Source of the DNA: an uncultured Planctomycetia bacterium
GTDB taxonomy: Bacteria; Omnitrophota; Gorgyraeia; 2-02-FULL-51-18; JAGOUK01
Reading direction: 5' to 3'
NCBI GenBank assembly: GCA_964430735.1
Contig: CAYSFB010000005.1
Span: forward strand, 110,390 to 174,389
DNA length: 64,000 nt
Part shown: one piece after another, positions 22,391-56,023 of the stretch
Position numbering within the stretch: position 1 is the first letter of the stretch
Layout: each line of letters opens with the position of its first letter
The notes under the pieces: generated by a model
Seen by the model: only the letters and a program-made list of their open reading frames with translations
Told to the model about the DNA's origin: nothing
Databases searched by the model: none
Program-made: the position numbers and the translations under genes

Positions 22391-25300
22391 GGCGCGCGAA
22401 TGGCCGCTTCGGGAGACGTCGTGAGTCAGAGCCGTGCGGCAAAAGAGGCCGTTCTTCTGGAAATGAATCAGCTCCGAAAAAGCGGATTTGATTCATGGCC
22501 CCTGAGCCAAAGACTGGATTGGCTCAAGTCCTGGCAGGATCGTGAAGTCATCGAGACGTGGGATTGGAACGAACTGATGTCCGAGGCAGGTCTGACATTC
22601 GGGCCAGGTCGATCCGTTGTGCCCGATGTCGGTGAGCGGGGGGTCGGCGTATCCGTATTTGATAAATTCAAAATTCTCAGTATCTCCGATGGCGCCGGTT
22701 CCGCTCAGCCCCGCTTCCTGACCGTCAACGGGTCGCTGCATGATTGCATCGCCCTGACTCTTTTTGACCCGGCCGGCCGCACCGGAGTTCTGTTTCACCT
22801 GCACTATCTCCAAGACGCAGATACGGTCATCTCCCGAGCCATGACCGAACTGGCTTCGCAGAGGTCCGGCGCAGAGCCGCGTTGGCAGGCTCGATTGGCC
22901 GGCGGTTGGTCGGAACAGTCCGAAGATCTGGCGATCCGAATCCTGCGGGCTCTGGAGCAGCGTCAGATTCCCGTGGAGAGCATCGACATCCTGAGCAGAC
23001 CTGCCAGGCCGATCCAGGATGCGGTCGACAGCGCGTACGGCGGGGTTCGCCCTGTTTTGGATGTCGCGACGGGAGCGCTTTATGAGATTGCCCCCGGTCG
23101 ATCCGGCGCGCGGATGGCATCGAGGACTTTGCGGGCGGGCACGGCATCAGTCTTGTTTGCCGTTTTGGCTAATGCCTATGTGTATGCGTTGTTCCGACAC
23201 CACCTTGCGGGAGCCCTCGGCCCCTGGACGTCGGGAATCGTCGGATTTGTTGTCAACACATCCATCTTCTTAACCTTTTCGGGCTGGTTTAGGTGGAGCC
23301 ATCTATCCGAGGAAGCCGCGTTAAACAAGGTCCGGAAGGTTCGGTTGGACTTGATTCGTCGGGCAACACTTGCGGAGGACTGGAATCTGGTGCGGGCCCT
23401 CAAGCGCACGACACCCAAGATCGTACTCCCATCCGAGTATTCCAAAGTCGTTTACGGCGGTAAGCAGAATACCGTGAGCAAGTCGGGCAAAAAGATACGG
23501 CACATACTTCTCACGCCCGAACTGGCGGTCTCTGCGCAGGCGATCCGCTATCTTCTGGTGCGCCGTTCGTTGGGTTTTGATTACGATGAACAGGTTGCAG
23601 CCATCCGCTCCTCAGGGCGCGGCGACATCCCGTTCTTTACCGTTTGGCAGCGCTTTTATTGGGTGAGCTACTCGGACCTGGAGACCTTAAAGCGCGCCCA
23701 TATGTATCCGCTCTTCAGCGTTTACATTCTGGTTCACGGATCGCTCATGAATACCGTTGCCCTGACGGCCTCCATCGTGCTCCGGCTCTACCATCAGGTC
23801 TTGGGCGGCGCGAAGCGGGAGGGGGATATCATCACCGTCCCGGCTCTTGTGACCGGCGTTGCGGTGGCGACATATGCCTTGGGTTTGGTTGCCGAAACAG
23901 GCGGAAGGATGCTGATTGCCGCAGCCTCGGGCGCCAATCCCTGGGATGGGCTGGCCCATATCCAAATGTCGTTCGCCGGGCATCTGGCGGTGATGAATTC
24001 GCTTTTGTCCTACGTGTATCTCAGGGAAACGATCGCCAAGTTTGATTTGGATGCCCAGCCCGAACGATCAGGTGCGCGGTTGGCGGACAATCCGGCGGTT
24101 CAGCAGGCGTTTGATCCTTCGCGCGGTATGCTCACGGCCCAAGACCTGAGCGTGGAAGCGGCACCGGCTGTTTTGGCCGGACAGATCCGGATGGTGATGG
24201 AAAAAACCGGCAAGAGCAGGGATGTCATCGCCGTATTTGATCTCGACGATTATGGGCATCTTCGGAAATCCGCCGTGTCGGCCGGAGCCTCAATGACGGG
24301 CATCATCTCGCATGAGAGTCTCGCCATCCGCATGGCCGGTTTGGGCATGCGCTATTTCCAAAGCATGCTCATGGAACGCGACGCGGACGGCCGCGTGGTG
24401 CAGATCAACGTCATTCCACGGCTCATTTCTGCGGACGCCGACGCCAGACGATCCAGTTTCGGGCGGGCGGTTCTGCTAATGACACAAGTCGTTCGTGAAC
24501 TGGGTCTCGACCCCTCTCAGATCGTTACGAACGACTTTTTTTCCGTGAACAGCGCTTTTAAAACCACGCTCGACCGCGTCGCCGCTCATGCGGTGCAAAA
24601 CCAGTCCGAGATCAGGGAAACCGGTGCGCGGTTGGCGGATCGCGCGGAGTCCGCTGCCTTGAGCGATGCTGAAAAATCCAGGCTCACCCCCGAGTATCGG
24701 ACCGCGGCAGAGTTTTTTGACAACTTCGAACGTCTGAAGGCCGCTCATCCGGATCATAAGTGGATCGTGGTTGGCCGGCACATGGAATCCACGTCGAACC
24801 TGTTCCGATATCTTCAATCCTACATCACGTATTCTCCGCCGACCCTTCTGGGTCTGTTGCAGCGGTATTTTATGGGCCGGTTCTTGTCCGCCAAGGGAAT
24901 TCAGTTCGACCGCATCATCGCAAGCGATCTGGAGCGCGCCCACAGCCTGGGTCAAAAAGTGGCGGATCAAAACTCCGCGGCTGTTGAAGTGAAGCGGAGA
25001 CTGCGGGAGGTCATGACGATCTCTCTCGGCGGCATCCGCAGCGACCTGTTCGACGTCGCGCGCGAAGCGCAGCGGCTGCGTTTCATGTCTCACCCCGAAA
25101 ATTACGACATTCCGGGATATTCCGGAAGGGAAGTCACGACCTATATCCAGGAGCTTTTTTACAAAGACGTTCCGGGCCATGCGGCGCGGACGACGTTTGT
25201 CGCGACGCACGGCATGACGATCATTCTACTGCTCCATTATCTGCTGAAGATTCCGTTCGAGAAGTATGAAGCCGTTTTTAAAATGACCGGCAATTCGCCC

Positions 25301-28300
25301 AATGTCGGCCTGAGCGTCTTCTCCTACGACCCGTTGGAACGCTCTTGGAAAATGTGGGTGTATGCGGACAACTCTTATCTGCCCGCCTGGGTCCGGCCCG
25401 AAAGTACGGGCGGGTTCTTCCGCATGTTGGAACGGATTTTTTACGTCGGTCAGGGCATTTACCGCATCGGTTTGCGGATATTTGGGCATCAGGGTTATGG
25501 TCAGCCGGATTACTTTCCGCTGGTCCTGCCGTTCGTCCGGCCTTCCTCAGCCCAGATCCGGGTGCTCAGCAAGATGGCGCATCACGGCGTTTCAAAGGTC
25601 CGCCCATCCGGAGATCAGGCAAGCCCTCCGTTCCAAGGCGCGCGTCTGGCGCGCGGCGATCGGGAGCGAATGGAAAACGTGCTCCGCCGCGTCCGTTACC
25701 GCAGGGGAGTCCTGCCATCGCTGAAGGTGGCCGCTCAATTGTACGACGAGCATGGCCGGTATCTTTCCTCCGGCACCAACCGCACGGGCAGGCCGCATGC
25801 AGAGCCGGATGCCGTGCTCAATGCCTTTAAGCGCAAGATCCGCGATTCTAAAAAACAGGGAATAGATTCGGAGAAGATCCACCTGGCCGAAACAGTTGCC
25901 GACTATCTGCATCTTCGGTGGAGGACGCTGGATCGCGATACGGATGAAGTGACTTTAGCCCTGCTGGATTGGCTGAATCTGGCCCTGAACACCCCTCTCA
26001 AAAATGCATCGTTTTACGTGAGTCTGGATCCCTGTAAGCAATGCGCCGGGCTGCTGAGCCGTTTGGGCGTCCGGCAGGTTTTTTACGGAATGTACGATTC
26101 GAATCCGCTTCAGGACGGAAGGGGCCTCTCCATTTTGAATCAGAACGGCATTCAGGTGCAAAACCATCTGATGGAGCGCTCGTTCGAAATGGAGAATGCC
26201 TTGTTTGTCCGCGCCGTCAAACTCATGCCGGCGCTCTACCTCATGCTGCACAATGCCAGGAAAAATCTTTTCGCAGCATGGTTCCGGCACACGTATGCGG
26301 ACCGCTTATCCGGTCTTGAGCTCACGCTTCGGAAGCATCGTGAAATCGCCGATATCCTCGACGCGCCGCCGAATTCCCCCGTGCTGAAGCGGAACCGGCT
26401 TGATTGGCGGCCGATTCGACATCACACCACGAACATCGCCCAGATGCGGATGTCGATGCTCACTCGCAGCATCGTCAATCCGGATTCCAAAAACACCCGG
26501 GTTCTTTACGGAGGGGCCGGCACCGATTTGACCGGTGTTTTGGAGACTTTTGGACCTGCGGATGTTGCCATGGTTTCGTATTACCACGGGTTGCAAAAGG
26601 AGGATTTGCAGACTGCGATCGAGATTCTGCAGAATTCAGGCGAGCAACCGCCTCTACTGGGCGACCGGCGCGCTGACGAGTACCGCCGTGTAAAAACCGT
26701 CTATGGTTTTGGAACCCGGCATTATCTCGAAAACCGTCACGAAATCACCAATGCGCTCGCCATCGAATTGGCTGCGGTCGGAGCGGAGCGGGCCCGGGTT
26801 GATGTGGAATCGGAAGTGCCGAGACTTATTTTTGAATGTCCGGATCCATGGACCGGAAAACTCAGGACGGTTTCTGTGCTTTTCATCGAAGCGGATATTA
26901 CTGAGTCTGACCGGTATCCCGACGCTTTAAAGGAATGGATGCGAAGTGGGTTCGACGGATACTTTCAAAAAGCGGGGCTCAAGATCGCCCAGGCCTATTT
27001 GACTCGGCCCGAATATCTCCGCGGCATCTACGACCGCATGAAGCCGGAAGGGTATTTTGCAACCGATGATACGGCGTATGTGGAGTTCGATCCAGATGTG
27101 GAGGCGGACATCTTCCAGGACTTTTCGGACTATTTTCCGGTCAAGGACGGCATCCGGAGCATTTATCCCGATGGGCTGGGGGAAGTGATCCAGGCTCGCA
27201 TTGCGGGAGACAGCGCCTTTTCAAGCCGCTCCGAGTTGACCTTGCGGCAGATGTACGGCTTTTATCTCCGGCTGCGGCAAAAAAGCGTCGGCGCTCGCCT
27301 GGCCGCGCCCGGGGAAATCACCGACCTGCTGCCGGATCCGGCTCAAGCCCTTCCGTACGAACAATTGATGAGCAATTACAAAGGCTATTTGAGCGAAGGC
27401 TTGATGCGGGACGTTCTCGGGACCTACACGGCGCATTTTGTCCCCGCTTCGCTGGATCCGCAGGCCCGGGAGACGGATGCGCGGATCGTCCGCGAAAATG
27501 CCGGAAGAGGTTACGCCGATCTTCAGGTGACGCGGGTGCTGGACTACCACCGCTACATCGTTCCGATGATCCGTCAGTGGAAGACGGAACATCCTGACAA
27601 GCGTCTTCTGGTGCTCAACGTGGACACCCACGACGATCTGGCGACGTCTTATTCGTGGGTCAACGACGCGAACTGGGCGTATCGGGCCAACAACAGCGGT
27701 TTGGCCGACGTCTATCACGTTTATCCCGACGAGAATTTCCGCGCGTTCGAGTCAGACGCGCCGACGCAGCCCAAGGCGTTGAGGGATCTGGTGCTGAATC
27801 CCGAGATCAATCCGAATAGCTATGACGAGGTCTGGGTTACCATCGATTACGACTACTACTCCGCCCGCAGCGGGTATTACGCGGGCTCGTACAACCTCGA
27901 CCGGTTCGAGAGAGATCTGGAGCTGCGGGCGCTGACGGGTTTTTTCAGGCAAAACCGAATCCGGGTCTCCAAGGTTGTCCCGGTCATTTCCAAAGAATAC
28001 CTCTATCACATGGAGCCGGCCGATCAGACGAAGTTCGTGGAGGAATTGACCCTCCAGATCCATGAAGCATTTGAGCAGCTCTCCCGCAGCCAGACCGATT
28101 ATCCGGCCTCAGACAAGCCGTGGACGGTCGAAGTCCCCGAGGGAGAGTCCTATTGGGAATTCGCGATGCGCCGCTCGCTGGGTATGGGCGCGCGGCTGGC
28201 CGGCGATCCGACGGATCAGCATGGGCGCATCGTCGAGTTGTTGGAAAAACCGGACACGCGCCTCGTCCGCATGCCGAGCAACGGCTTCGACCGGTACCGT

Positions 28301-31300
28301 ATCGAGGCCGCGGACGGCGGCGTTTTGTACGAGTTGGTGGGCCAAGAGTCCGGCTCCGGTCTTGCGCCTGTGTGGCTGATCGAGCCGATCGACCTTTCCC
28401 GACTCGAAGCCGGCGACGCGCGGATCATCCTCGACTTCCGCACCGAACCAGAAAAAACACAAGCCTTCGATGCTCTGGTCCGCAGCAAGGCGGAGCATGC
28501 TGCGGCCGCAGAGGATCCAGGCGTGCATGCGGATTATCTGCAATCCTCCATCAAGAGTTATCTCGATGCCGGGCTGCTGAATCCTCCAGCCTCTTCGACC
28601 GGCGATCTTTTGGCCGATCACTTTAAAGGAGCGTCGGTCCTGAATATCGGTCTGGAAACGGATGAGTACGGACAGTTGCGGGACAAAAATATCGTGACGC
28701 ATCTCAGGTCGCGCGGAGTGGACGCCGTCGGCGTCGATCCGCAGGCCCCGAACCGGCCGGATCTGGGACTGGTGAACGGTCTCGCGCAGAGACTCGACGT
28801 CCTGCCAGCCGATCGGTTCGATTGGGCGGTGAGCATCGGTCTCTTCGATCCCGGATTCATCGAAACACGGTTCATGAACGGCCGCCGCGCTTTTACCGAC
28901 GAGAGTTATCGCTCCGTGGCGAACGGACTTCGGCGCGTACTCAAGGACGGCGGACGCTTCCTGGTCAACACTTACAGCAATCCGAACGACAAGCTGACGC
29001 AGGCGCTCATCGACCGCGGATTCGTGCGGATGGAACAGGTAGACGGAACCGGAACCAGGATCTATATCAACCGCAAGCCCAAGCCCTCTCTCATGGAAGA
29101 CCCGGCTGTCCGCCGTTTTATGAAAAAGTTCGGCCTCGACGGCGCGCGGCTGTCATCCGCCCTATCAGATGTCATAGATGGCCGGGAAGGAGCTTACACT
29201 TCTCTTTGGGTGGAACTTTATCCGGTCATCATTCGGAAGATCGATTCGTTTGTCCAACGTGCCGGCAGCCCGACGGATCTGGACGTCAGCCGCATACAAG
29301 ATCACGTTGAGCAGGGTCTGCGGCGCATGATCCTGGAACAAGTCCGTTATCGCGAGAACATCAACTATGCTTTGATCCACACCATGATCCGCCGGAGGAT
29401 CATCGACAGTGCGAGGTCTCAGACCGGATTCAAGCGGGCGCGTCAAGTCCGTACTTACTCATCTGATCCGGCTGATATGACGGATCTTTGGCGCGACGAT
29501 CGACCGTCTGCGGAATCTGCTGCGGGTGATTCCACCGGTCCTTCGGCGGTAGTGAGCCAGTCCTTGGACCGGATGCTGAGCTTGGCCATTCAAGAGTATT
29601 TGGACGCTGCGCATGCCTACAGTCCGGACAAGCCGCGGAGCATCCTCAATCTTCTTTTGGGCGTCGGCCGGGATCGGGCGATCCAGATCAACAGGCCTTT
29701 ATTTGCGGCTGTGGCAAAACAGGCAGGCATATCCCAATCCCGGGTCTCTCAAATATGGAGCGGATATCTCAAGTATATCGTGGCCCATCCATCACATCGG
29801 CAGGAAATGATATCGCTGGTTCAGTATTATCCGTCGTGGCTCAATCCTCGAGATCGACGCTTCATGGGACATCAACGGTTGGGTGCGCGGCTGGCCGGCG
29901 TTTCGGAGCAGGATTTGAACGGGTTCGTGAGGTTCATCCTGTCAGGCCGGTTCGAGCCTTTTGATCCGGAGCACACGCGCATCATGGCCCGGGCATCGGA
30001 ATCGGGATCCGATGATCCGGTCACGGCCATGATTCTGGAATCGACCGACCAAGGACAGCAAAAATTGCAAACGCTGGCGGTGGTGAACCGCGAGGGCCGA
30101 TTGGTCGCGGGGGCTACCGTCAGCATGTGGTTCACCGGCGGGAAGAAGTGGCTGAACGTCATCCGCATGGACACGTATGAAAAAGGCCGGAGTTACATGC
30201 GCCGAGCCGCGCGGCAGTTGCTGGTGCAAGGCCAGATCGATCTGTGGAGGTCCAGCGACAATCTGTCCGCCGCCGGAATCAAGCTGCATACCAGCTTCGA
30301 GGGAGACGCCGAGATCGGGGTGCGCCGAGACCTCGGGGCGTACGATCTTTATCTGAAGCCGCAGACGGGCGCGCGGATGGCGGACGCTGATCTGACCGGA
30401 GAGCTTCGTTGGAAAAGCTGGTTCCGGCCGTGGATGCTGGATCTCGAAAAACCGGAGCAGCTGAATCTTTTCTTGCGCCGCCTGAATTTTCTTTCGGGCC
30501 TTCCGGGGTATCACGCTTCGAGAATGCTGGTTTCGACGGCTGTCCCGCTTCACATTTTTCAGGTGCCCGTTTTTAAGGCGAACTCCGCGTGGATGATGGG
30601 CTTCATGGCCGCTCACCTGATTCTGACGGCAAGGGGTAAGCGGTTCACGGAGGAGCAGAATTTGCGGATGCAATACGGCCGACCGGTGCTGCAGACATCC
30701 GGAGCGTTCCGTTACACCCAGCATCCATTTTATCTGGCCTATTTTTCGGTCTACCTGACACACTTTTTCATTCAGCCCAACTGGTTCTCGTTCGGGGCGA
30801 TGCTGAGCATGGCCGCTTTTACCGCGCTCCGGATCGTCGTCGAACAGCACGAAATGTGGGCCCTGCACGGCAATAAATATCTGGCGTATTGGCAGTCCAC
30901 CCCCATCCTGTTTCCCTGGACCCGGCCCGGCGGCCCGTCCGGCGCGCGGATGGCCGGTGATTCGGATCGGGCCAAGCGGATCCAGTCCGGACTCACCCGG
31001 GCATTGGCGGAAAACGCACGATTGCTCAGAACCATCGCTCGGGAAGGCGCGATGCCGGAAATCGATCTGGAAGAGTCGGTGCGCTTCGAATTCGGCGACG
31101 ATGGGCGCCTGGGCAATCTAGGGCTGATGGATCGCGGGCGATACACGCCCATCGGCAGAGAAATTGCCGTCCGCATCATCCGCGCAGGAGCCCTCATTCT
31201 CAGCGAATATTCTGATCGTTACCGGCTGAAGGACGGAAGTAAAACGGTCTACGTTCGAATTCAGGAGCCGTCCCTCTCACCGGCGGAAGAGGACGGCCGC

Positions 31301-34300
31301 GAACCGGGTGACTCCAGTCTGATCGAATCGGCCCGCAAAGAAATCCAGATTGCATGGAACGGGCTCATGGATCTCTCCAAAGACTGGACGATGGATCATC
31401 CGCAGTTGAATGCCTTGTCACATCTGCTGTCAGGCCTGATGACCTTAAACTCTCATTTGAGACAAATGATGAACAACGGCCCGCCCAGCGCCGAATCTAC
31501 CGCCCTTATCCACGAACGAATCCAAAATTGGGCGATCCCTCAAATCAAGGGCGCCATGAGCTTCCTGACTCAAAGCGATCTCCGACAGGCATTGAGCCCT
31601 TCTCAAAGAGTCGCTCTTCTGGGAGATGACGGACCGCTTCTCAAGGCCCAGGCCTATCTCCGCCGGTTTCTCGGCGCGCGGATGGCGACCGCGCGTTTTG
31701 TGGAGGATGGATGGACGGTGCTGCGCCGGCTGACCGACGCGGATTTTGGAGCAGGCGCGTCGCCTGAAGCTCGCCGATTTATGAGGGAGTATTCCGCCTT
31801 CAAGAACGGGTCCAAATGGCATGCCCAGCGCTTTGCTCATGAGATCGTTTCGCTGATTCGAGAAAAGGAATCGCTCTCGGACCTCTCGGAATGGGCAGTT
31901 GTCACGCCGCGCGTGATGAGCCGGAAGACCCCGGCTGTGCACGCTCTAGGCGAAAGCATCGCTTCCCAACTTGGAATCACGCACGTTCCCCTGTGGAGGA
32001 ACTCGCCTCGCGAAAACGGCGAGCATTACTCCCGCATTGCCACGGCCGAGGAGCGGATGCGATTCAAAACAGAATCCGCCGGCGACCTGATACTTTCCGA
32101 AGAGTTGAGAGGCAAAAAAATCCTGCTCATCGACGATCTCATCACGACGGGAGCGACGCTGCAGTCGGTGAAGCGCTTTTTGGAAGAATCCAACGGCGTC
32201 CGGAGCATCCGCGTGTACGCCGCCGCTTCGCTGGAGACCGACCGTGCGGACCTCGAATACGAACTGAACACGAATCTCATGAACCTGGCTGCGTTCGAGC
32301 TGTTGGACGCGATTTGGTCGGCATTCCTGCCCACCCATCTTGCGCTTCAAACGGTTCTGACACATGTCCATTTTGACCGTCTGGTGAGCGCCCTGTCTTA
32401 TCCGAGTCTGCAGGCGATCACCCGCGCAGCGCATCGGTATTTTACCGGATTCCGGAATCCGACACCCGAAGAACAGCGACGAATGGATGTCGTCGGATCG
32501 GAACTGAAACGCCGCGCCAAAGAGCATCGGGAAACGGCCGAGCGAATCGACGTCCACGCGTCGTTTCGCCGCGTTCCCGGACTCGGGTCGGGGATTCCCG
32601 TCGCGTTTATCGCCAAAGGCGACGGCGATGCCGCCTATCGTGCCTCACGGATCGAGACGCGCAATACCGCTAATCCGGGATCTCCAGCACAGGCTTTTGG
32701 TAAGCGCCGCGAATTCCGAGAAAACGGCTTTGTGGCTGTCGGCGAATTCAGCGACAACGGTTCCGTATCACACCAGTGGAAAATAGAATTATGGGACCCC
32801 AGAGGATTCGCCCAAAGAGGGGATGAAGCGATCCTGGGACTGCAGGACGAAATCAGGATCGTTCGTATGTCCGACGGATCGCTTGTGCACACGATCCGGC
32901 ATCCGAAGTTAACATCCGTACACACCATCGAACTGAACCCCCGCGACCCCAATCTGGCGCTGATCACCGCGACGGGTTCCGACAGGATCCTGGAAATCGA
33001 CCTCCGAGACGGGTCGATTGTTTGGGAGTGGAACCCCTGGAGGAACGGATACGGCGTCAACAAGCTCGGCTTGAGGATCTTCGAGGACGGCGATCCGCTG
33101 CCAGCCGGAGCGGCCGTCATCGGATTTGAAGAAGCGAAACGCAGGATGGAATCCGGTGAAGCGGTGCGCGAAGAGGAGAATCTGGTCCATGTTGTGAGTT
33201 TTGACCGCCCCGATGCGATCCTCGAAAAATGGGAAAAGACCGCGAGTCCGAACTGGGCCGGATACGGTCCCGACGGAACCATTCTTGCGACCTTGTTCCG
33301 GGTTAATCAGGCCGTGCAGATCGACCGCGCCGGCGGCGTCCGCGTGCTCTATGACGATCTTCGACGCCCGCACGCAATGATCCGGTATAAAAACGGTTAT
33401 CTGATTCCCGACACGATGAACGGACGGATTGTGATCCTTAAGGACGACTTCACGCTCGATCAGGTTTATGACTTATCCACCTTTCCGAACGAGCGCAACC
33501 TTCCGCATCGTTCGTACGAATGGCTCCAGTTCGCCCATCCGATATCGGACGATCTGATCGCGGTGGTCGATTCTCGCCGGAACAAAGTGTTCGTGCTCGA
33601 TCCGGAAAATTCTTTATATTCGGAATATCCCTATGACCCGAATCGAACGATGCAGGCGGTCCTTCCAGTGGTCGATGCGTCGGCCGCGCGGCTGGCGGCT
33701 CCGAAGACGCACGATTTATCCGATACGATCGGGAAGCAGATCGATGCTCTGGACGAGTTCGCCAGGCAGTCTTCGGTCCGAGTGCAGTACGAGAGCGAGC
33801 CGGAGCGCATCGAATTCGTTGATCCGAATTACGAAGAACGGTCCGGTCAATTCCAGCTGGGATCCGCGATCTTCCACGTCTTGGAAAACGCCATCAAATA
33901 TTCTCATCCCGGAGGCGCGGTCGCGGTCCGGACCCAGCGCGAGGCGGATGGAACGATCACCATCTCGATCCGCGACAGCGGGATTGGGATCGAAGAACCC
34001 TATTTATCCAATGTTAAAAAGGGGGTGTTGTATTACCGGCACCCCGCCGCCCAGCGCCACGCGAGAGGCAGCGGCCGCGGTCTGGTCGTTTCCAAGGAAA
34101 AAATCGAGCGGGTTTACGGAGGGACGTTTGAGATCCAAAGCGGAGGCTGGTCCGACGGCACCTCCGTCACGATGAGGTTCCGACCCGGCAGCCCGTCCGG
34201 CGCTCGGTTGGCCGCGTTTCAGGCGGACGCGGTGGCCGCGTTGCTGCGCATGGCGAACCAAGAACAGGATCCTGACAACAAGAAGTCGATCGCGGACTAT

Positions 34301-46300: not shown

Positions 46301-49300
46301 GAGGCCAAGTATCTGGCGCTCGCGATGCGTTCATTTTCCCGTCCGATGAGCGATGGAAAAAAAGGAAGACTGTCCCGCCATGAACTTTTGCGCCGGGTGA
46401 TGAGCAAGGGACTCCTTCACCGGCATACCGACAGCCGCCCCGTTTCTATTTTTGAGCCCGCCCCGCCGGTCCACACCGAGATCCGCGTGTTCCGTCTCTC
46501 GAATCTGGCGCCCGACAGCGGGGAGCTCGATCCGGTTTACCGGGAAGTTCTTTTCGGGGCCCGCCGCCTGGCCGCCGCCGCTTCCAGCCATCTCAAGAAG
46601 GAATCCGGCCGGCCCGTCACGGACATCGAGGACCGGCTGGCCCGCCGCTGGGAAGATTACCGGAACGAAATCACCGGACTGTATGCGGATGAGCGTTATG
46701 GTTCCGCGGCGCTCCTTCAAGCCGACTGGTACGAGGCCACCGGCGACATCGATGACCCGCGTCTGGTCCAGGAGCTCGGCATGATCCGGGCAACCGACGC
46801 TGCCGGTGAATTCCTGGCCGCACACGACGGCCTCCGCGACGAGCTGAAGGGCCGGTTATTCGAAGTTTTTGTCCGTCATGCCGGCCTCATTGACGCCGAT
46901 CTGTCCGGCGCGCGGCTGGCCGGGGTTGAACAGACTGTGAAGCATGTGGACGAGATCTTTTTCAGGAGCCTGTCGGACGAGGACTTGCCGGCCGCTTCGG
47001 AGAACGTGAAAAAGTTTTTTGTCGATCGGTTCAAAGACCTCCTGGAATCCTTGGAAACGCTCAAGAATCCCTTGCAGGCGTTCAAGGACCTTGCGCGCGC
47101 CGCGCGGCGAGAAGGCGGGATCTTCATGCTCTATGCCATCGGGATCGAGCTCATCGAGGACGTCGTGATTCCCGGTATCCTGGTGTATGCGGGGCAGCCG
47201 CAATGGGTTCCATTCTTTTTGGCGTTTCACAGCGAGCCGTTCATGTACCCGCTGTATTTTTATTTGCGGCGCAGGCTGAAGTCGACGCTCAAGCCCGATG
47301 AGTTCAACCGGTACTTTGAAAACGTTCGCGGCGACATGCTCAAAGCGACAACCCTGGAAGAAAAATGGAAAACCGGCCAGGAAGCCGCCCGCCGCGTGCG
47401 GCTCGGGGACGTGGTTCAGTATTTTGTCCAGGTTCTGGAGCGCGACACGCGTGAGGAGCTTGCGTCGGAATCGGATCTTGTCACGGAGCGAGAAGTCGCG
47501 ATCAAGGCTTTGGGGCGTCTTTTGGCACCGCCGGAAGCGCAAAAAACGGTGACGGCCGAAGTCTATCAGAAGGCCCTCGTTCAGCTGATGCTGCACGCGG
47601 ACTCCTCCAACCCCTGGCTGCGGAAAACGGCGCTCGGGGCGCTGGCCAAGATCAAGGACCCGCGCGGGTTGGCGCCGGTGCTCGCGGCGCTCGGCGATCC
47701 GAACCCGATCGTCAAATCCACCGCCGCCAGGGCGATCGGGCAATTCCGCTCCTCCGTTCCCGGTTCGGCCGTGAGCAGTTTGATCCAGACGGCGCTCGAC
47801 TCCCGAGAAAATATTTATGTCCGCGTGTACGCGATCCTCTCACTCGGCCGCATCGGCGAAAGCCTCGGGTCCGCCGCTCCGTCCAAACTGACGCCCGCGT
47901 TGATCCGGATCGCCGGTTTTGAGGATCCGGCCCTGCAAAGCGCTTCCATCGAATCGTTGGCGCGGTTGAGGAGCGGGGACCCGGCCGTGTGGGAATTTTT
48001 AAAAAACAAGGCGCTTCGAAACACCAAGAACTTTAATGCCGGCGAACTCGCGTTGTGGGGCCTCACGCGGACTGTCGCGGCCGGGTTGAGGACGGGGAAT
48101 GCGGATCCCCGCGAGCGGGAGCTCATGGCGCTTTTGAACCTGGCGCAAAAAGGGCCGGACGAAAAGCGCGCCCTGTTCGCGAATCAGGCGCTGACTCAAA
48201 TCTTCGGAATCCCGAATAAGACCGCCAAGCCGGCCGTAAAAAAACCCGCTCGTCGTCCGGCCAAAACCGGGCAAGTCCAGTTGGTGGCGGTCGAATCGCA
48301 GCCGTCGGTCAGGTCGACCCAGCGGAATCTGCAAACGGATCTGAATCGCCGAAAAGTTTCTCATTACGTGATGCGGGCGGATGATTTTTATTATCGGAGA
48401 AGCGACGCGCCGATTCTTGAATCCGGTCAGGTCGATTCCCGGAACCGGTTGAACGGAGCGCTCTTACTCAGGATCGTCCGCCGCAATCAGGAAGGCCGGC
48501 CCTTCCGCTATCCTTTTTACGATCCCTTCCGCGGCAAGGCCTACCTGCACCTGACCCGCTCCCCCAAAAACAGATTGATCCTGGTCGGCACCCGCGAAGA
48601 AATCGCCGCGATCGGCGAGTACCTAACAAAGGAACACGTCGATTTTACGACCCGTTCCAACCCGGGTCCCGAATCTCCCGAGCCCGCCGGCGCGCGGATG
48701 GCGGAAGTTCAGCCGGAAAAAAATCCAAACGCATCTTTCCAAAGAATGGTGACTGTGATCAGGGATGGCGGCATTCACCTTCATCCCTCCCTGGAGATTG
48801 CGTCGATTGCACGAGCTTATCAAGGCACCGAAATACGCCTGCATGACGGCAGGCAATCGGTGAATGCAAAAGAAATGTCCGAAATAGGTTTGTTGGCAGC
48901 CGGTCAAGGAGCGATGCTTACCGTGTCCGCTGTGGGCCCTCGCGCCGAAGAAGCCGTCGATGAAATTGCCGGGCTATCTTATTTTGCGCCAACAAAAGCC
49001 GCGCGGCTGGCGGAGGATGGGCGGACATCGCCGGATGCTTATTCCAACGATCTTCTCAAATGGTCTGCTTCGCTTGTCGAAGCCATGCCGCGCGGGTGGT
49101 TCGCCGGCATCTGGCGGCGGGATCCGTTGGAAAAGGCGGCGCAGGAAATGGCTGAGACAATCCTTTTTAAGATCGCAGCGGAAGAGCGCTCCGGTTATCT
49201 GGACGCGTTAAGGCGTTTTGCGCAGACCGCCCGCATCGGACCCGAAACGCTGATCGTGGACATGCGGCAGGAAGTGTTGCTGCGTGCCTGGAACCGTATT

Positions 49301-52300
49301 TTGAGCATGGACGCGGCGTTCACCAGAAGGGAATTTTTGGCAACTTTAGCCGCGGCGTCGGTTCAGACGGCCGTTTCGAGGTATGTTCCGATCCGTGAGG
49401 TTTTGTCCGGCCTTTCAGCCTCCTCAATAAAGGGCGCGAGCGTGGACGTTGCGTTGAGGTTCTTGTGGCAGCCGTCGTTTTTTTCGGTGGCATTTGAGAG
49501 GTACGAGGAAAACAGGGCGGCTCAGAAGCGTATGTTCGGAGCATCGAGCGTAGTAGGCTCGGATCTCCACGTGGAGTTCGTCTCTCCCATTCGTGCCATC
49601 CACGAACGGGTTCATGGTTCCGGAGACTTCAGGCCCATCAAGCCTGGGGATGCTTACGACGACACGCTCATCGGCGAACCCTATCTCGCGTCGCCCTTCG
49701 AAGAATATCCTCTGTGGGCCCGGAAAGAGATGGTCCTCGTCGCCAGACGATTCGCGGATAACTTCAATGCAACGGAAAGTTTCATGCGTTCGCTCGACGA
49801 AGATGTGCAGGCGCGGTTAGCAGATCTGGATCCATTGTCCCCGGAAGCGTCTCGCTTGCGGGCTTTGGTCTTGGAGCAGATGGATGCTCCGATCAACGTG
49901 CGAAAAGCCATGATCCGGGAGATCGGTGAGGAGCGCCGGGCCATCCAAAGCCGGCTGCAGCTCGCCGAGAACCCGGCGGATGCCGCGATGTCTTATGCGG
50001 AATCATCGAACAACGAATTCGCCTACGATCTTTTTCCCGAGCCGGACAAGGGCCCAAGCCCGCTTCAAATGGCTTACGACCTGTCCGGCCTTGAACTTCG
50101 CCTGATGCAGCAGATTGTTCAGTTCAGCGGGTCTGCGTTCGGACCGTCCGGCGCGCGGATGGCTTCGGACGCTCAGGCAGACCAGCCGGGACAGCCGGAC
50201 TCGGACGCGGACATTATCCGGAAATACGGCTGGAAAACCATCACGGACGACCCTCTAGCGACGGAACTTCTGCCGCGCGCACAGGCGCAAGCTGCCGTGG
50301 AAGAGATCCGGTCCTACTTCGAGGCCGAAGCGCCCGACTACGACCGCAAGAACTTTGACCGGCTGGATCTGGACGCGGCGCTGCAGTCGTCCGTACTTTT
50401 GAACGGCAACCGCCGGCTTCAGATCGTCCTTGTTCCCTATCAGGAAGACCCGGATGCCAAGCCGTGGAACCGGGTGAAGGACGGCATGTCGTTGTTCCGG
50501 ATCGACGGGGATCTCGTGGCGCACGGGTTCTACACGCACCGCATTGCCAAGAACGAGACTTTTCCCGCGTTCGGGATGCATCCTTCGGCGGCGCGCTTCC
50601 ACGCGTCCGAACAGATCTACAAGGCCTATCTCAAGACCCTGTACGGGATGTTCCGTCCGGACTTCTTCGGCGTTCAGGCCTCGCAGATCTGGAACCGCCA
50701 GCCGGGCACCAACCCCGACCGCACCATTTTCTATATCAAACGCGGCTTTTTGCTCCCGAACTCGGACGATCCGGGTCTGCAGGCCTTTGCGGACGGGATC
50801 TACGTGCGGTTGAAGGAAGACGACTGGCTCTCCCGCGAGGAAAAACTGGAGGTGTACGACCGGCTCCTCAACGGCCTGGAAGCCGAAGAGGGGAACGCGA
50901 TCTGGTATTCGACGCCCCTGGCGCCGGAGTCCGCCGGCGCGCGGCTGGCGGGTCGGGAGCGGATGCACGAACTGAAGCGGCGGGCGGACTTTAACAATCT
51001 GCGTGTCGGTGACCGCATTGAACTGCCCAAGGCGACCGCGTCGGTTCTCTGGGTAAAAAAAATCGGCAAGGGACATGCCGTGCTCGGGATCCAAAACGGA
51101 TCGGCGGAACGCGAAATCCAGATTGACCAACCCTTCAAATCCGGTTCCTCGATCACGTTCAAGCATGTCTCCGCGGGTGTTTTTGTCGGAGCGGTCGAGG
51201 TCGACGCAGATCGGTCTCAACCCCGTCTCGATCTGCGCGTGCTCACGCCCAAGGTCTTGCCGGATGATCCTATGAAGCAAGTCCCCACCAATGACGGTTC
51301 CGGCGCGCGGCTGGCCGAAGGCAGGCGGAAGCGCAGCGAATCTTCGGCGGCCAGGACTCGCCGTGAGAGGATGATCGCCCGGATGAACGAGACGCCTCCG
51401 GACGGTCATCATTGGAAAATCTCGGAGTTGGCGCAGTCGTTAGGGGTCAGTATCCACACCCTGCATAACGATCTGAGGGCTCGGAACCTCCGTTATTCCG
51501 ATAGAATCCAGAAACACTCTCTCAAAAGGCCCTCCAAGAAAGAGATTGTTTTGAGGCGGGAGCGCGTCGCCGCCAAGTTTTTTCAAGCCACTCTGGATAA
51601 CCCTTGGACGGTTCAGTCGCTTGCCACAGAGCTGGGGCTCGCTAAAAAAACCGTTTATGACGACTTGGATTCCATGGATCTTCTGGGGTCTGATCTCTTG
51701 CAGTTGGAAGACCGCGCGCCGGTCGTCGAGGCTCGTGCGCGCCGACTGCGCTTGACCGTTCTGCTGAATCAAAATCCTCCTCATGGCGACCGCTGGACAG
51801 TGGCTCAATTATCCAAAGCTTTGAACGTCAAACAGGGGATTGTTTACTACGATCTTCAGTATCTGGGGCTTCTGGATTCCGACATGATTGAACTGAGAAA
51901 AAAGCCATCCCAGGAATATCTGAATGCCCGCCGGCAGCGGCTTCGCAATTTGCTTCAGTTGAACCCTCCGGATCGCGATCGCTGGACTACCAATGAATTG
52001 GCGCGAGTGCTGAACATGCCCCGGTTCATTGTGTACAGCGATTTGGCGGCCATGAACCTGCTCGATTCTGACAGGCTGGATATCGAAAGATATCAAAATC
52101 CATTTTCTCGGGAAGAGATCGAGCAACGGCGTCTGCAGATCGCGGTCACCCTTTTGTCCGTGGCGCCTTCCGGGAGGAAGCGCTGGACCGTGGGAATGCT
52201 GGCGGAGTATCTGAATCTGTCGTATGACCTGATATACCACGGCCTGATGGAGGCCGGTCTTTTAAAGTCCAAAAAATTGAGTCTTCGAAAAATCAGACGG

Positions 52301-55300
52301 CCCCATGCCCCAGTCGAAAAATCTCTGAGGAGTCTGGCTGCGTTTGAGATGAGCGCGGATCCGGTGGAATCGCTTCCTGATGATCAGGCCCAGTTGATCG
52401 ATCTGGCGCGCAGCAGGCTGGATGACGCTGAGTACGAGATTTTTCTGCGCGATTATTTTTCGCAAGACGACGAGAGCATCGAACAGGCCGCTGCGGCCAG
52501 CCATCTGACGACCGAGGAACTCGTTCTTAAACGGAGCGAGATTCTTTTTAAGCTGTCGCGCGACGGCGCGCGGCTGGCGAGCGAACGCCAACTGACACTG
52601 GATCGTCTTCGGAACGTTGGCCGACGTTTAGAGCGTCTCGCGGAAGCCCTCGGATTTGGGAAAGACCACCCCGAGATCCAGCGCTTTGAAGACGAAATGG
52701 ATCGCTTGAGGCAGGCGGGTGACAAGGACGCTTACCGAAGGCGAGCCCGGGAGCTGTACGACGAAATCAGTTCGCGGCACACCCCGACATTCCGGACAGC
52801 TCAGAACTTCGTTTTTTACTCCAAGTTCATCCGCGGGCTTGAGATGCGGCTTCTGTTGCGGGAAACCGGCAATCCCGGATCGAGTTCCAAGTTTGAATGG
52901 CCGGAGGATGAAAAAACCCGAGCCCGCCATACCCTCCTGGCCGCGAAGCAGTTTGTCGGCAGGATAGCTTTTGCCATCAACTGGTGGGAGGACCAGCTGC
53001 GGAATTTGGACGCTTCGGGTCCACTGGAACCAATGCCGCAGAATATCGATTGGGATGCTGTCGAATTTATGGCCGTTCTCACGGCTCTCCAGTCAGCGGA
53101 TATAAAGCTCGCGGGCTTTTCAAAATCCATGGACCGGATCGATCGCACTCTCACGAATGTGTTGGAAGGGATTTATCAGGACGGGCCGGACATTGGCGGT
53201 GCCGGCGCGCGTCTGGCGCAGTCCAAGTTTGCGGTTGTAAAGGAGCGCCCCGAAGCCGCGGCGCTCAAGATGGCCGGGGCGCTGCGTGCAGCGATGGCGG
53301 CCAATACGGATTCGATAGAGTTCTTCTCATTGCGGGGCTGGATGGTTTTTCATCCGGATGGAACGGCTTCGGCGGTTTTTCAGCCAGTTCGCGACTCATC
53401 GGGTTATACGCCCGCCCACGAGCGTTTAAAGGAGGCCTTTGTCGAAGATTATGCGGATCAGGCGATATTGGAAGGTGCCTGGGTCAAGCTGGCGGTCATT
53501 TTTAGAGACGGCAAGTCGGCCGGAGTTTCGCTCATGGACTTCGATAAGGATAAAAAAGAAAGTTTTGTTCAGGCCAGCTTCCTGATGGAAGACCTGCTTC
53601 GGGCCGCGTTCGGCGATCAGGAGGCCCGTGAGGTGTACAGCTATGTGCCGATGGCAGAGTTTTTGGACGAGGAATATGAAAAAGTTCTGCGGCCGTTGGC
53701 GGACCAAAACGGCACATCGCGGTCAGCGCTTTCCATCATCAACCAAACGTTGAGGAAAGCCGCAAAAAACGTTCAATCTGAACCCGTTCCGGAATCGTCA
53801 AAAGGGGACAGGTCGGGTGCGCGGATGGCCAGCAAAGGTGTGGTGGACTTGAGTCAGGAATTCCGCCGGCTTAATACCAAGCTGGTGTCGGTCTTGAAGG
53901 CCGCCGAACCGGACTCGATCAAGCTCACCACCACGATGATGCATGCTTTTTTTGCAAGCGACACGATTCCTGTCCCGGGCGAGTATTCCGATAATCCGGC
54001 CGAGGATTATTCAGGCCGGCTTGCGATGAGCATCGTGTGGTTCAGAAAAGCTGCCGTGAGGAGGGGCAATCACAGTAAACGGATATTTCAGCCGGAAAAA
54101 GCGATCGGGGCTTTGAGTCAGATTCTCGAGGTTCTGTCCGAGACAAATATTCCGGATCGGATTCCGCGCAAGACCATTCTTACTGCGCGGACGGCGGTCA
54201 GCGATTTCATGGCCTTGATCGAACCCTCCCTGAACGAGCCGCAAAGGAGGGCGTCCGTTTCCGGTTTCGAAGGGCGAATCGGCGTGGAGGCGCAGCTCCA
54301 GTATTGGTATGACCAGCCCGGCGATTTTGTGGGCGATGAGATTGATATCACGGGCTATCTCGGATCCAAAAGCCGCAAAGAAGCCAAGATCCATTGGAAC
54401 TTTTTGCTTCCGAACGGCCAACCGTTGAAGCGGAGGGTCGCCATGGGAATCGGAGGCGGGGCCGGGATTTTGAAGTACACCGTCCAGCCGATGAGAGAGG
54501 TCGGAGCGCTTAATCTGGTATTCCGTGGTTATCGGGGGTCGGAGTCGCGCCAAGAGGCAAGGTCGGGACTGTTCCGCTGGGATGCGGCTGCTCAGACAAT
54601 CCGGCACACGCGCGAACTCATGGACGAATGGCTTGCCGGTCAGTACAAACGGACGGGTGATTTTAAAAGCGAAGAGAAGCCCATCAACCGGTATATCGGC
54701 CAATCCTCCGTCGACATGGCGACGGTGAGCAAGGGCTTTTTGCTTCCCAACGGGCGGACGTGGGGGCATCAAGACCCTATGCGGTTGGGGCTTCGCGGGC
54801 TACCGCTCTATACCGTGCAGGTCCAAGGCGTTGCCGGACAACTGCAGATCGTCTTTCGCGGTTATCGTGATCCGCATGGAAGGCGGCCCGTCGCAACCGC
54901 GGTCTGGGATTGGGTTTCGGAAAAGGGGAAATTTGTGGAGACGCACGACCGTTGGCTTTCCAGACAGTACGCGAGGAGCGGGGTGTTTTCAACCGAGGAC
55001 TTTGTGATCAATGATTATCTGGGCTTGTCCGGTGTTCGATCGGGCGTGCTGAATAAGGCTTTTCTCCTGCCGAACGGCAAAACGCTGGGCTATCACCCGA
55101 ACCTGCGGTTGAACCGTAAATCGGAACGGTTCGACCGATTCACGGTGCGCGTGCAGAGAAGCTTCGATTCGGGTCCTTTGGAGCTGGTTTTTAAGGGCTG
55201 GAAGCTGGATGCGATCGGATGGAATTCGACCGCGCAGTCAGAATGGGTTTGGAATCCCGAGACCGAAAAACTTGTTTTCCGGTCCAGGTCGGAAGGTGCC

Positions 55301-56023
55301 CGGCTGGCGGTAGATACGGGTCGGAATCGCATCGCGGCCGAATCTGATTTGTGGCTTGAGCAATTGTCGGATTTGTTGGCACTTTTTGAACTCTCGAGTT
55401 GGGAGATCGACGCGCGCGCCGAGGGGATCGCACGGCCGGAGAACGCGGAAGATTTGACGCTTCTTTTGCTGAAAAGCGCGGCGGCTTCGTTCGAGGAAAC
55501 GGGTAAAACGGTCTTGGTCCGCGTCGGTGAGGGCGTGCTGGACGCGGGGGCCAAACAAGACGAACTCATGGGGATGTTAAAAAAGCTTTCTGAGCACGCA
55601 GTGAAATACGGGATTTATTTTGATTGGAGCCGGGTGATGGGATTTGCCGGCGAAGTTCCTTCCGCGCCGGAAGGAAGCGAAGAAGTGAGGATCGTGACGG
55701 ACGCGGCCCAGCTGGCAGCCGGCCAGACAGGGCTCGTTTCGGCGGAGAATCCGGATATTTCGGGTCTGGGGCTCTTTGCCGCGCTCCTGGCCCGGACTCC
55801 GAAGAACGCACTCGACGCTTTTATGACGCAGCACGCGAGCGCGCTCAAAACGTTCTACGAATCCGAGCTGTCGGTCGAGACGCTGGCGGACTTCAAGGAC
55901 GTGCCTGCGGACCCCGGCCGGCGCATTCAACTCAACTTCCACAAGGCTGTTCCGCTTTTGCGCGTGATAGAACTTTTTCAACGGCTCCAGACCGCCGCCC
56001 GCCTGGCATCCATTTCCGCCTGA
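20690..56023 (+). CDS. giant 11,777-aa multi-module protein or polyprotein; more than 30 unrelated domains delimited by a recurring [SA][GA]AR[LM]A hexapeptide
   Basis: A single ORF with no stop for 35,334 nt. All recognisable domains are read in this frame. N-terminal signal peptide/TM [20 protein letters not shown]. The motif occurs at all 34 module junctions (positions listed in the first finding) and in the last 10 residues ([10 protein letters not shown]-stop). Confidence 0.75.
   Translation: [11777 protein letters not shown]
23105..24070 (+). other. module 3 (322 aa): polytopic membrane module, 5-6 predicted TM helices
   Basis: Hydrophobic runs [79 protein letters not shown] and [13 protein letters not shown]. 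Confidence 0.6.
24623..25636 (+). other. module 5 (338 aa): histidine phosphatase (PGAM-branch) domain
   Basis: [13 protein letters not shown] is the RHG catalytic motif. IIASDLERA and [10 protein letters not shown] supply the second His. Confidence 0.6.
25790..26060 (+). other. CMP/dCMP(CDA)-type zinc deaminase motif region inside module 6 (25637..27289)
   Basis: [14 protein letters not shown] (HxE) and [12 protein letters not shown] (PCxxC) have the correct order and spacing. Confidence 0.55.
28187..29140 (+). other. module 8 (318 aa): class I SAM-dependent methyltransferase-like
   Basis: [25 protein letters not shown] and [13 protein letters not shown] (motifs I-III). It ends at the variant motif GARLS (29141). 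Confidence 0.45.
29141..29881 (+). other. module 9 (247 aa): sigma-70-family-like module (region 2 plus region 4 HTH)
   Basis: Region 2-like [41 protein letters not shown]. Region 4-like [28 protein letters not shown]. The size equals that of a free sigma factor. Confidence 0.5.
30368..30940 (+). other. module 11 (191 aa): ICMT/phospholipid-methyltransferase-family-like membrane methyltransferase
   Basis: [17 protein letters not shown] ... [25 protein letters not shown] (RHPxY plus the EE..L..FG..Y..Y pattern), with flanking TM helices. Confidence 0.5.
31673..33682 (+). other. module 13 (670 aa): type I phosphoribosyltransferase (ComF/GntX-like) followed by a beta-propeller-like domain
   Basis: PRTase PRPP motif [22 protein letters not shown] (nt ~32118-32165). 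Downstream are repeated Gly/Asp-rich beta strands ([39 protein letters not shown]...). Confidence 0.55.
33683..34198 (+). other. module 14 (172 aa): histidine-kinase-type HATPase_c (GHKL) domain with a possible H-box
   Basis: N-box [14 protein letters not shown], G1 IRDSGIGI and G2 [19 protein letters not shown]. The upstream [15 protein letters not shown] is a possible phospho-His site. Confidence 0.6.
35294..36127 (+). other. module 17 (278 aa): second methyltransferase-like Rossmann module
   Basis: [23 protein letters not shown] and [10 protein letters not shown]. Confidence 0.35.
36960..37320 (+). other. NUDT9-like Nudix ADP-ribose pyrophosphatase domain inside module 18 (36128..37480)
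   Basis: [30 protein letters not shown] ... [23 protein letters not shown] closely follows the NUDT9/NUDT9H pattern NPRGRTGLRGRG...GPNH.DP.VTRW...KGYMDDPRNTDNAWIETVAV. Confidence 0.7.
37481..38536 (+). other. module 19 (352 aa): GHKL-type ATPase region resembling an anti-sigma-factor Ser kinase
   Basis: [35 protein letters not shown]. The call is tentative. Confidence 0.3.
38537..39601 (+). other. module 20 (355 aa): ECF-type sigma-70 module (regions 2 and 4) plus an extra C-terminal HTH
   Basis: Region 2-like [21 protein letters not shown]. Region 4 [44 protein letters not shown] is a textbook ECF sigma-4 signature. Confidence 0.65.
47560..48000 (+). other. PBS-lyase-type HEAT repeats inside module 26 (46907..48688)
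   Basis: [46 protein letters not shown] ... [17 protein letters not shown] ... [19 protein letters not shown]. Confidence 0.6.
48689..48997 (+). other. module 27 (103 aa): HPr-like phosphocarrier domain
   Basis: [76 protein letters not shown] matches the HPr fold pattern (GLHARPA-like His, NAKS, LG..G). The module has exactly stand-alone HPr size. Confidence 0.6.
51302..52564 (+). other. module 31 (421 aa): five tandem ~50-aa HTH-like repeats followed by a sigma-70 region-4-like HTH
   Basis: Repeats of the form RR.R....L...PPxGxxWTxxxLAxxLxxxxxxVYxDLxxxxLLDSD (nt ~51350-52270). Then [43 protein letters not shown]. Confidence 0.5.
54320..55290 (+). repeat. three tandem ~110-aa protein repeats of unknown fold (FLLPNG...LxLVF[RK]GY motif) inside module 34
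   Basis: [12 protein letters not shown]...[12 protein letters not shown] / [12 protein letters not shown]...[13 protein letters not shown] / [12 protein letters not shown]...[11 protein letters not shown]. Confidence 0.55.

Follow-up and report, generated by a model that had tools for sequence, protein, structure and literature searches.

How does a single bacterial gene come to carry nearly the same short string of DNA at about 35 boundaries between coding modules that bear no detectable similarity to one another? The question is raised by a stretch of 64,000 nucleotides (nt) (hereafter the window) from an uncultured Planctomycetia bacterium, placed by GTDB in the Omnitrophota (contig CAYSFB010000005.1 of assembly GCA_964430735.1, positions 110,390 to 174,389, forward strand). 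It contains a giant gene, W1, which is one unbroken open reading frame (ORF) of 11,777 codons (20690-56023, + strand). As delimited from the ORF list and from Pfam and PDB matches, W1 encodes 33 internal modules between an N-terminal domain and a C-terminal module, the latter followed by a short tail. A short junction peptide recurs between the modules, and its DNA is more uniform than the peptide needs. On balance, we favour the view that this uniformity is the footprint of cassette exchange between giant genes, with the crossovers falling inside the junction.

The pattern [GA]AR[ML][AMS] occurs 35 times in the W1 frame, the first time at nt 22391 and the last at 55994-56008, nine residues before the stop codon, and the initial annotation had located this span correctly. 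The modules have ordinary protein sizes (103-835 amino acids, aa), and no similar pair was found when all 35 were compared with each other by blastp (E<1e-3). Every domain recognised with Pfam or the PDB is confined to a single module, and the domains come from unrelated enzymes and regulators. They comprise a histidine phosphatase (His_Phos_1), a RibD-like deaminase (dCMP_cyt_deam), a phosphoribosyltransferase (Pribosyltran), a histidine-kinase ATPase (HATPase_c), a methyltransferase (Methyltransf_11), a NUDT9-type ADP-ribose pyrophosphatase (NUDIX), sigma-70 region 4 (Sigma70_r4), HEAT repeats, HPr (PTS-HPr) and winged-helix (HTH) domains. Many distinct Pfam families are present and none dominates by copy number, the listed families being found once each. 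The short motif recurs exactly at the boundaries of these independently folding units. No protease was recognised among the internal modules in the Pfam and PDB searches.

The conservation reaches the DNA itself. An exact 14-mer, GGCGCGCGGMTGGC, which can also be written GGCGCGCGG(A/C)TGGC, is present in 14 copies, all on the + strand, against 0.01 expected from shuffled sequences, and 33 copies lie within one mismatch of the 11-nt core, every one of them in codon register. Ala is encoded by GCG at 29 of the 35 junctions (83%), Arg by CGG at 28 (80%), Gly by GGC at 22 of 29 and Leu by CTG at 18 of 23. In the rest of W1 these codons have frequencies of 0.405, 0.31, 0.39 and 0.36, respectively (binomial p of 3e-7, 3e-9, 6e-5 and 5e-5). 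In the eight other genes of the window they stand at 0.446, 0.245, 0.624 and 0.377, against which the junctions are still enriched in GCG (p=4e-6), CGG (p=8e-12) and CTG (p=9e-5), the difference for GGC being non-significant (p=0.09). The initial annotation had claimed that the DNA is conserved beyond the requirement of the peptide, and the figures for GCG (83% against 40-45%) and CGG (80% against 25-31%) agree with it. The synonymous variants that it listed (GGT, GCT/GCC/GCA, CGT/CGC/CGA, TTG/CTT) are all present. Two of its details need amendment. The strong GCG-CGG pair bias is real, but the pair is used at 24 of 35 junctions and not at about 26 of 34; and most Gly codons are indeed GGC, but not clearly beyond the preference of the other window genes. 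Nucleotide information is high over about 17 nt only, (TCC)GGC GCG CGG (A/C)TG GC(G), and drops to the background level over about 3 nt beyond either edge, with no extended similarity in the DNA flanking the W1 junctions. Because of the bias, the mean exact match between pairs of W1 junctions rises from 3.4 to 7.7 nt (maximum 20), and exact identity over 14 nt or more is reached by 10% of the pairs instead of 0.4%. Neighbouring junctions resemble one another slightly more than expected from shuffling (p about 0.01-0.03).

Further information was obtained by comparing W1 with its relatives. Module m26 (48698-49006, +) is a complete HPr domain. Its 103 aa match residues 5147-5249 of the family member P0005 at 98% identity, while the N-terminal domains of the two proteins are only 51% identical and the flanks of the module are unrelated. 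At the protein level, the similarity begins at the boundary between GAR and (M/L)A and stops after AARLA, inside the junction peptide at both ends. Its left breakpoint corresponds to junction 26 (48689-48703, GGC GCG CGG ATG GCG) and its right breakpoint to junction 27 (48998-49012, GCC GCG CGG CTG GCG, AARLA). The GC content at third codon positions (GC3) is 0.50 in m26, and 0.74 and 0.68 in the adjoining modules. Similarly, modules m31-m33 (52574-55303, +) form a colinear block that is 77%, 93% and 90% identical to residues 6202-6988 of P0003, another relative with an N-terminal domain about 51% identical to that of W1. This similarity is bounded by junctions 31 (52565-52579, GGC GCG CGG CTG GCG) and 34 (55295-55309, GGT GCC CGG CTG GCG); the upstream sequence is unrelated and the downstream module is 26% identical. 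Among pairs of family members, 11 of the 20 ends of high-identity internal blocks are no more than 6 aa away from a junction, whereas 2.2% of random positions are so close. Moreover, GC3 heterogeneity between W1 modules peaks at the true junction boundaries, a value that none of 2,000 shifted partitions reaches. The closest relative, P0001, has an N-terminal domain 70% identical to that of W1 and has the first and last modules in common with it, but 0 of the 33 internal modules. The C-terminal module, m34 (55304-56002, +), is kept in the close clade P0001-P0005 at 26-42% identity. Cassette exchange of whole modules with breakpoints in the junction is supported by these independent lines of sequence evidence. 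The initial annotation had proposed a role of the junction in cassette-like module shuffling and a comparison of relatives for module gain or loss at the motif. Both proved fruitful, with modules shared at 77-98%, block ends inside the junction at the protein level, GC3 steps and a complete internal turnover in P0001.

The other junctions of W1, all on the + strand, are the following. Junction 1 lies at 22391-22405 (GGC GCG CGA ATG GCC, GARMA), junction 2 at 23105-23119 (GGC GCG CGG ATG GCA), junction 3 at 24071-24085 (GGT GCG CGG TTG GCG) and junction 4, the same as the adjacent junction 3, at 24623-24637 (GGT GCG CGG TTG GCG). They are followed by junctions 5 (25637-25651, GGC GCG CGT CTG GCG), 6 (27290-27304, GGC GCT CGC CTG GCC), 7 (28187-28201, GGC GCG CGG CTG GCC), 8 (29141-29155, GGC GCG CGG CTG TCA, GARLS), 9 (29882-29896, GGT GCG CGG CTG GCC), 10 (30368-30382, GGC GCG CGG ATG GCG), 11 (30941-30955, GGC GCG CGG ATG GCC), 12 (31673-31687, GGC GCG CGG ATG GCG) and 13 (33683-33697, GCC GCG CGG CTG GCG, AARLA). 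Next are junctions 14 (34199-34213, GGC GCT CGG TTG GCC), 15 (34559-34573, GGT GCG CGT CTG GCG), 16 (35294-35308, GGC GCG CGG CTG ATG, GARLM), 17 (36128-36142, GGC GCG CGC CTG GCG), 18 (37481-37495, GGC GCG CGG ATG GCG), 19 (38537-38551, GGG GCG CGG CTT GCC), 20 (39602-39616, GCC GCA CGG CTT GCA, AARLA), 21 (40382-40396, GCC GCC CGG CTG GCA, AARLA) and 22 (41462-41476, GCC GCG CGG ATG GCG, AARMA). Junctions 23 (43172-43186) and 24 (44402-44416) both read GGC GCG CGG ATG GCG, and junction 25 (46907-46921) reads GGC GCG CGG CTG GCC. After the HPr module come junctions 28 (50150-50164, GGC GCG CGG ATG GCT), 29 (50936-50950, GGC GCG CGG CTG GCG) and 30 (51302-51316, GGC GCG CGG CTG GCC), and within the block shared with P0003 junctions 32 (53204-53218, GGC GCG CGT CTG GCG) and 33 (53816-53830, GGT GCG CGG ATG GCC). 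The protein ends with a junction-like tail (55994-56020, +; AARLASISA and stop), whose GCC GCC CGC CTG GCA is the least consensus-like junction DNA in W1. Module m33 has about 123 extra N-terminal residues (window 53825-54220, its first ~130 aa) with respect to its 90%-identical counterpart in P0003, and this stretch includes a degenerate junction-like SGRLA at nt 54011; it could represent a small inserted module or a junction that has decayed.

Junction DNA was compared among 11 family genes for which DNA was available, and within-gene homogeneity was tested in 10 of them. The GGC-GCG-CGG consensus is found in W1 and in the loci L014, L003 and L005, and partly in L016. In L014 and L005, CGG is used at 11 of 12 and at 5 of 6 junctions, although it is a minor codon there (background of 0.19 and 0.13). 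A GCG-CGC variant is found at the junctions of L011 and L015, and GCC-CGC at those of L013, where GCG and CGG are each used at 3 of 12 junctions and codon uniformity is not in excess (p=0.58). L012 (CGG at 0 of 13) and L009 have no junction codon bias and keep the peptide intact. The junction Arg of L003 alternates between CGG and AGG, with no other codon, and AGG sets this lineage apart as a consensus of its own. Pooled over the genes other than W1, the excess of GCG and CGG at junctions is significant. Junction codons are more homogeneous than the codon usage of their own gene predicts in 6-7 of the 10 genes, and junctions are more alike within genes than between them (0.518 versus 0.435 after label shuffling, p=0.003). 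Uniformity that differs in this way between lineages is easier to reconcile with homogenisation through exchange than with a universal signal. The tandem paralogous modules of L003, although only 25-30% identical in aa sequence, still have near-identical junction DNA, which is the pattern predicted by concerted evolution in a gene pool and not by a universal signal. These paralogs, six in a row (m02-m07, aligning end to end), belong to a gene at L003:9818-20794 in an Omnitrophica metagenome-assembled genome (MAG), where each module is duplicated together with its junction; the modules of W1, by contrast, all differ.

We propose the following scheme for cassette exchange. The junction string (14-17 nt) encodes a boundary peptide, x-G-A-R-(M/L)-A, that separates about 35 unrelated modules in a type of giant gene known mainly from Candidatus Omnitrophota. 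The peptide is kept across thousands of family members, presumably as a recognition or processing site, most plausibly for the TIKI/Ere-like hydrolase domain that always stands at the N-terminus. Whole modules would move between diverged giant genes by crossover within the junction, the sole sequence common to otherwise unrelated flanks, through short-homology recombination or template switching. Repeated exchange, perhaps together with short-patch conversion, would keep junction codons alike in the gene pool. Modules with consensus ends would be the ones that move, so that junction DNA would stay alike, and like junctions would then supply 14-20 nt of exact microhomology for the next exchange. 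DNA identity may be either the cause of exchange, as a microhomology substrate, or its consequence. We infer that the crossover would make mechanistic use of this identity and that proteolytic cleavage would take place at the junction.

Several observations weigh against this scheme. The breakpoints were mapped at the protein level only, and no recent internal blocks are shared among the 11 family genes with DNA. The exact matches between junction pairs are short, at the mean and maximum given above, and such lengths fall below what efficient RecA-dependent exchange requires. No recombinase gene is adjacent to W1 in the window neighbourhood. The GCG-CGG consensus recurs in distant lineages of 48-59% GC, even where CGG is minor (L005, L014), which could leave room for direct codon selection, and L012, L009 and L013 keep the peptide without DNA uniformity. 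Finally, the exchange partners come from metagenome assemblies and may include chimeric contigs, but the junction repeat is shorter than the usual assembly k-mers.

If codons were selected directly, they could act on expression, by pausing or tuning transcription or translation at module boundaries, for instance in favour of co-translational folding or processing. We regard this as rather unlikely, although a part of the data is what it would predict. Codons of the NNG type (GCG, CGG or AGG, CTG/TTG/ATG) are used nearly throughout, third-position G being favoured at Ala, Arg and Leu in W1, and also in L003. Both the use of CGG as a minor codon in L005 and L014 and the pooled excess outside W1 point in the same direction, and 28 of the 35 W1 junctions match a pause-like pattern, GGN8YG. 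However, most of this last match follows of necessity from the codons for Gly and Met/Leu, and the peptide stays intact where the bias is absent (L012, L009, L013) or where CGC takes its place (L011, L015). No RNA family was matched by Rfam at gathering thresholds, and the junctions show no excess of RNA structure by dinucleotide-shuffle z-scores (z = -0.09 versus -0.13), the difference in raw minimum free energy being an artefact of GC content that vanishes with those scores. Shine-Dalgarno-like sequences upstream of the M/L codon of W1 junctions are not enriched (3 of 35, versus 14% at random positions), which gives no support to internal ribosome-binding sites. An effect of preferred codons on translational accuracy was likewise rejected, because the preferred Arg codon of the other window genes is CGC, and several relatives use CGG at their junctions as a minor codon. 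Still less probable is a trivial origin of the DNA identity in genome codon usage or codon-pair bias, to which we give practically no credence. As this explanation would have it, GGC for Gly does not significantly exceed at the junctions the level found in the other window genes. But GCG (0.41-0.45) and CGG (0.25-0.31) are far below their junction frequencies of 0.83 and 0.80 and well under 75% of their codon families, the level above which the initial annotation would have called the identity trivial, as far as the 64 kb of the window shows, both in the rest of W1 and in the eight other genes. Outside the motif, GCG-CGG encodes only 11 of the 99 Ala-Arg dipeptides of W1 (11%), so codon-pair context is not the source of the bias.

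The remaining explanations concern recombination of other kinds. A dedicated system for site-specific recombination, or a nuclease system, could act on the core much as in an integron or a shufflon but inside an ORF, and the core would then be a protein-binding site instead of passive microhomology. The sharp edges of the conserved core (~17 nt) and the mapping of crossovers to the junction would agree with it, as would a tyrosine recombinase gene (Phage_integrase; L013:1-262) that ends about 240 nt upstream of the giant gene of L013. We nevertheless give it a slim chance, as L013 is the only locus with a recombinase nearby, W1 and most relatives having none, and several family genes, L013 included, show no DNA-level conservation. 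In addition, all the W1 copies are direct and unstructured, without inverted-repeat architecture. The initial annotation had also suggested recent duplication or gene conversion between junctions. That the junctions are alike as recent duplicates, copied with their modules, or through ordinary long-tract conversion, is hardly credible. The slight likeness of adjacent junctions and the tandem paralogs of L003 speak in its favour, but no two W1 modules are detectably similar, the flanking nucleotides carry no information, and the 25-30% identical paralogs of L003 are saturated at synonymous sites while their junction DNA is near-identical. The sharp borders of the ~17-nt conservation rule out recent duplication and long-tract conversion, which together with the dissimilar modules effectively refutes both for W1. 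From that suggestion, a short-patch, concerted component of gene conversion is retained, being compatible with the greater likeness within genes and between adjacent junctions. Exchange of modules at the junctions is the explanation we prefer.

W1 is a member of a large family. Word-indexed homology searches gave no matches for module 0, for a 1,500-aa internal stretch or for an alignment of four N-terminal sequences, and Pfam did not recognise the N-terminal domain even at E<=5. The family was found only through exact look-ups of neighbouring genes, pattern-based locus searches and an exhaustive profile search with the N-terminal domain. With the pattern-based searches, genes of this architecture came to light in two MAGs, one of Omnitrophica and one of Planctomycetia, and in several metagenome contigs. 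The profile search gave 8,052 cluster representatives, 2,015 of them at E<=1e-30, with the domain at the N-terminus in all members and protein lengths of up to about 7,900 aa. Its named members are all annotated as 'hypothetical protein' of Candidatus Omnitrophota, and the named relatives of W1 belong to Candidatus Omnitrophota/Omnitrophica MAGs and to one Planctomycetia MAG. This large unannotated family probably belongs to the Omnitrophota. The top 152 members contain 731 copies of the motif, where about 20 would be expected, with a median spacing of 287 aa, which strongly supports the earlier proposal that the peptide is under selection. A family-wide conserved C-terminal domain was considered and rejected; it is common to the close clade only (7 of 153), whereas an [SAT]A terminus is general. 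In 107 of 153 proteins the sequence ends in [SAT]A, mostly as ...xSA or ...xAA, and the last junction-like motif often lies 4-9 residues before this end. Such termini are reminiscent of C-terminal recognition tags. Relatives also combine, within a single ORF, modules that match families of central metabolism and signalling. L014 has PEPCK, FBPase, adenylate kinase and CsrA, L012 an aldose epimerase and a response regulator, and L015 protein kinases.

The signature of the family is module 0 (20690-22399, +), which starts with a hydrophobic helix and continues as an alpha/beta hydrolase core of the TIKI/Ere/ChaN/TraB-like type, into which a large helical segment is inserted. An AlphaFold model of the domain, obtained from 15 diverse members, was confident (pLDDT 83.5) and shows a central parallel beta-sheet between helices, an alpha/beta core similar to that of solved members of the TIKI/Ere/ChaN/TraB group. 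H84, E112, E165 and H473 are invariant in the 15 members, and each follows a core beta-strand in the model. They may correspond to the 2His/2Glu catalytic residues of the active members of the TIKI superfamily. The first 30 aa (window 20690-20780) form a conserved hydrophobic helix and then a small-residue patch (A26-A27 invariant, consensus AAP), whose sequence suggests a signal peptide or membrane anchor, though the cargo modules look cytoplasmic. Family members begin with this TIKI/Ere-like hydrolase domain, carry cargo delimited by junctions and end in a junction-like tail. Since the predicted hydrolase is always present, the junction always recurs and a tail follows the last module, self-processing at the junction is suggested.

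The window holds the start of a second giant gene of the family, W2 (61810-64000, +, running off the window end), which begins 5.8 kb downstream of W1 and continues in L002:4217-11371, reaching more than 2,385 aa in that Logan contig. The N-terminal domain of W2 is a paralog of module 0 (25% identity, E=2e-22), and the first W2 junction, which reads AARLA, lies at nt 63301. Junctions are much sparser in W2 than in W1, at aa 498 and 2135. The genes neighbouring W1 are housekeeping genes. Further upstream (2084-7183, +) lies a gene for a 1,699-aa protein with GH2 TIM-barrel and GH72-like matches, which is not of the giant-gene family. Two short-read Logan contigs of the same organism, L001 (SRR14271366_188) and L002 (SRR14271373_5474), break on both sides of W1, one within an AsmA-like gene just upstream (20.5 kb) and the other 31 nt before SdhA (57.6 kb). 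These breaks could reflect strain-level heterogeneity in module content.

The closest analogues of the W1 junction system are the VENN-delimited cassettes of contact-dependent inhibition (CDI) and the MARTX toxins. In CDI orphan cassettes, homology begins and ends at VENN-encoding sequences, and recombination between these sequences has been proposed (PMC3150448). As in CdiA-CT/CdiI and Rhs proteins, a short conserved peptide bounds the variable parts of W1, and the similarity of exchanged modules begins and ends in the motif, at the protein level for m26 and m31-m33. The motif is different, (G/A)AR(M/L)A and not VENN or PxxxxDPxGL, and the cargo resembles ordinary enzymes and regulators, not toxins. 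Whereas CdiA has one demarcation motif with separate orphan cassettes and immunity genes, W1 has up to 35 junctions in one ORF and no immunity genes. Pfam found no DUF638, haemagglutinin-repeat or RHS-repeat matches in W1, and no two-partner-secretion or Rhs core domains. Like W1, a MARTX toxin is one giant polypeptide in which conserved N- and C-terminal regions enclose a modular centre of functionally independent domains. The MARTX cysteine protease cleaves after Leu and before a small residue, which resembles (L/M)-A at the W1 junction, and the TIKI-superfamily fold of the N-terminal domain of the W1 family is also that of RRSP, one of the MARTX effectors. A MARTX toxin carries up to five effector domains (PMC6315884), which are freed by proteolysis and whose repertoire varies between strains by gene exchange (PMC6315884, PMC5218395, PMC5555677). 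The internal modules of W1 recall, as an analogy only, this mosaic central region that varies between strains. Unlike W1 with its about 35 modules, MARTX toxins have at most five effectors, and their inter-domain sites are not a fixed five-residue motif with conserved DNA. RTX, haemolysin-type and glycine-rich repeats and Peptidase C80 were absent from W1 in the Pfam and PDB searches, and type I secretion genes from its neighbourhood. Viral polyproteins also hold many unrelated protein-sized units in one ORF, with a short recurring motif between them and a hydrolase domain in the same polypeptide. However, the candidate protease of W1 is TIKI/Ere-like and not of a viral fold, cleavage of W1 is presumed, and the context is cellular, among housekeeping genes. 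Integrons and shufflons differ in their adjacent recombinase and structured sites, the W1 sites being direct and unstructured with no recombinase nearby.

Giant proteins have been described in the Omnitrophota as class 1, 'multi-enzyme metabolic cluster' (Nielsen and Lui 2026, bioRxiv 10.64898/2026.06.07.730766), and as the giant genes of West-Roberts et al. 2023 (10.1101/2023.11.21.568195). Like W1, these multi-enzyme giants are very long ORFs with many Pfam families, none dominating, and with NUDIX, methyltransferase, kinase and HEAT content. Neither study mentions a junction motif, a linker, a cleavage site, an N-terminal domain or module exchange at junctions. The 2023 study, which first drew notice to the Omnitrophota giant genes, could not subdivide them, the cleavage points not being known (10.1101/2023.11.21.568195). 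Module boundaries and candidate cleavage sites, missing from that earlier work, are what the junctions supply. The phenomenon is akin to the demarcation-motif cassette exchange of CDI, Rhs and MARTX systems, and is set here in a very large undescribed family of giant modular genes.

It is possible, although we hold it only tentatively, that these are true bacterial polyproteins, in which a TIKI-like hydrolase would cut between GAR(M/L) and A and free dozens of ordinary enzymes and regulators from a single translation product, while the junction DNA would serve as an in-frame recombination site through which whole genes could be gained, lost and traded as cassettes. If true, this would amount to an integron-like gene-cassette system at the level of polyproteins, in more than 8,000 sequence clusters and widespread in the Omnitrophota.

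In summary, the junction motif provides an explicit and testable grammar by which one very large class of giant genes can be read, with module limits, would-be processing sites and a candidate protease domain. To this the DNA signature adds an evolutionary mechanism, cassette exchange at junctions, which would explain both the mosaic assembly of these genes and the entirely different cargo of close relatives. Cutting the proteins at their junctions makes structure prediction and annotation tractable module by module, and thousands of unannotated genes can be located and divided into modules with the help of the motif.

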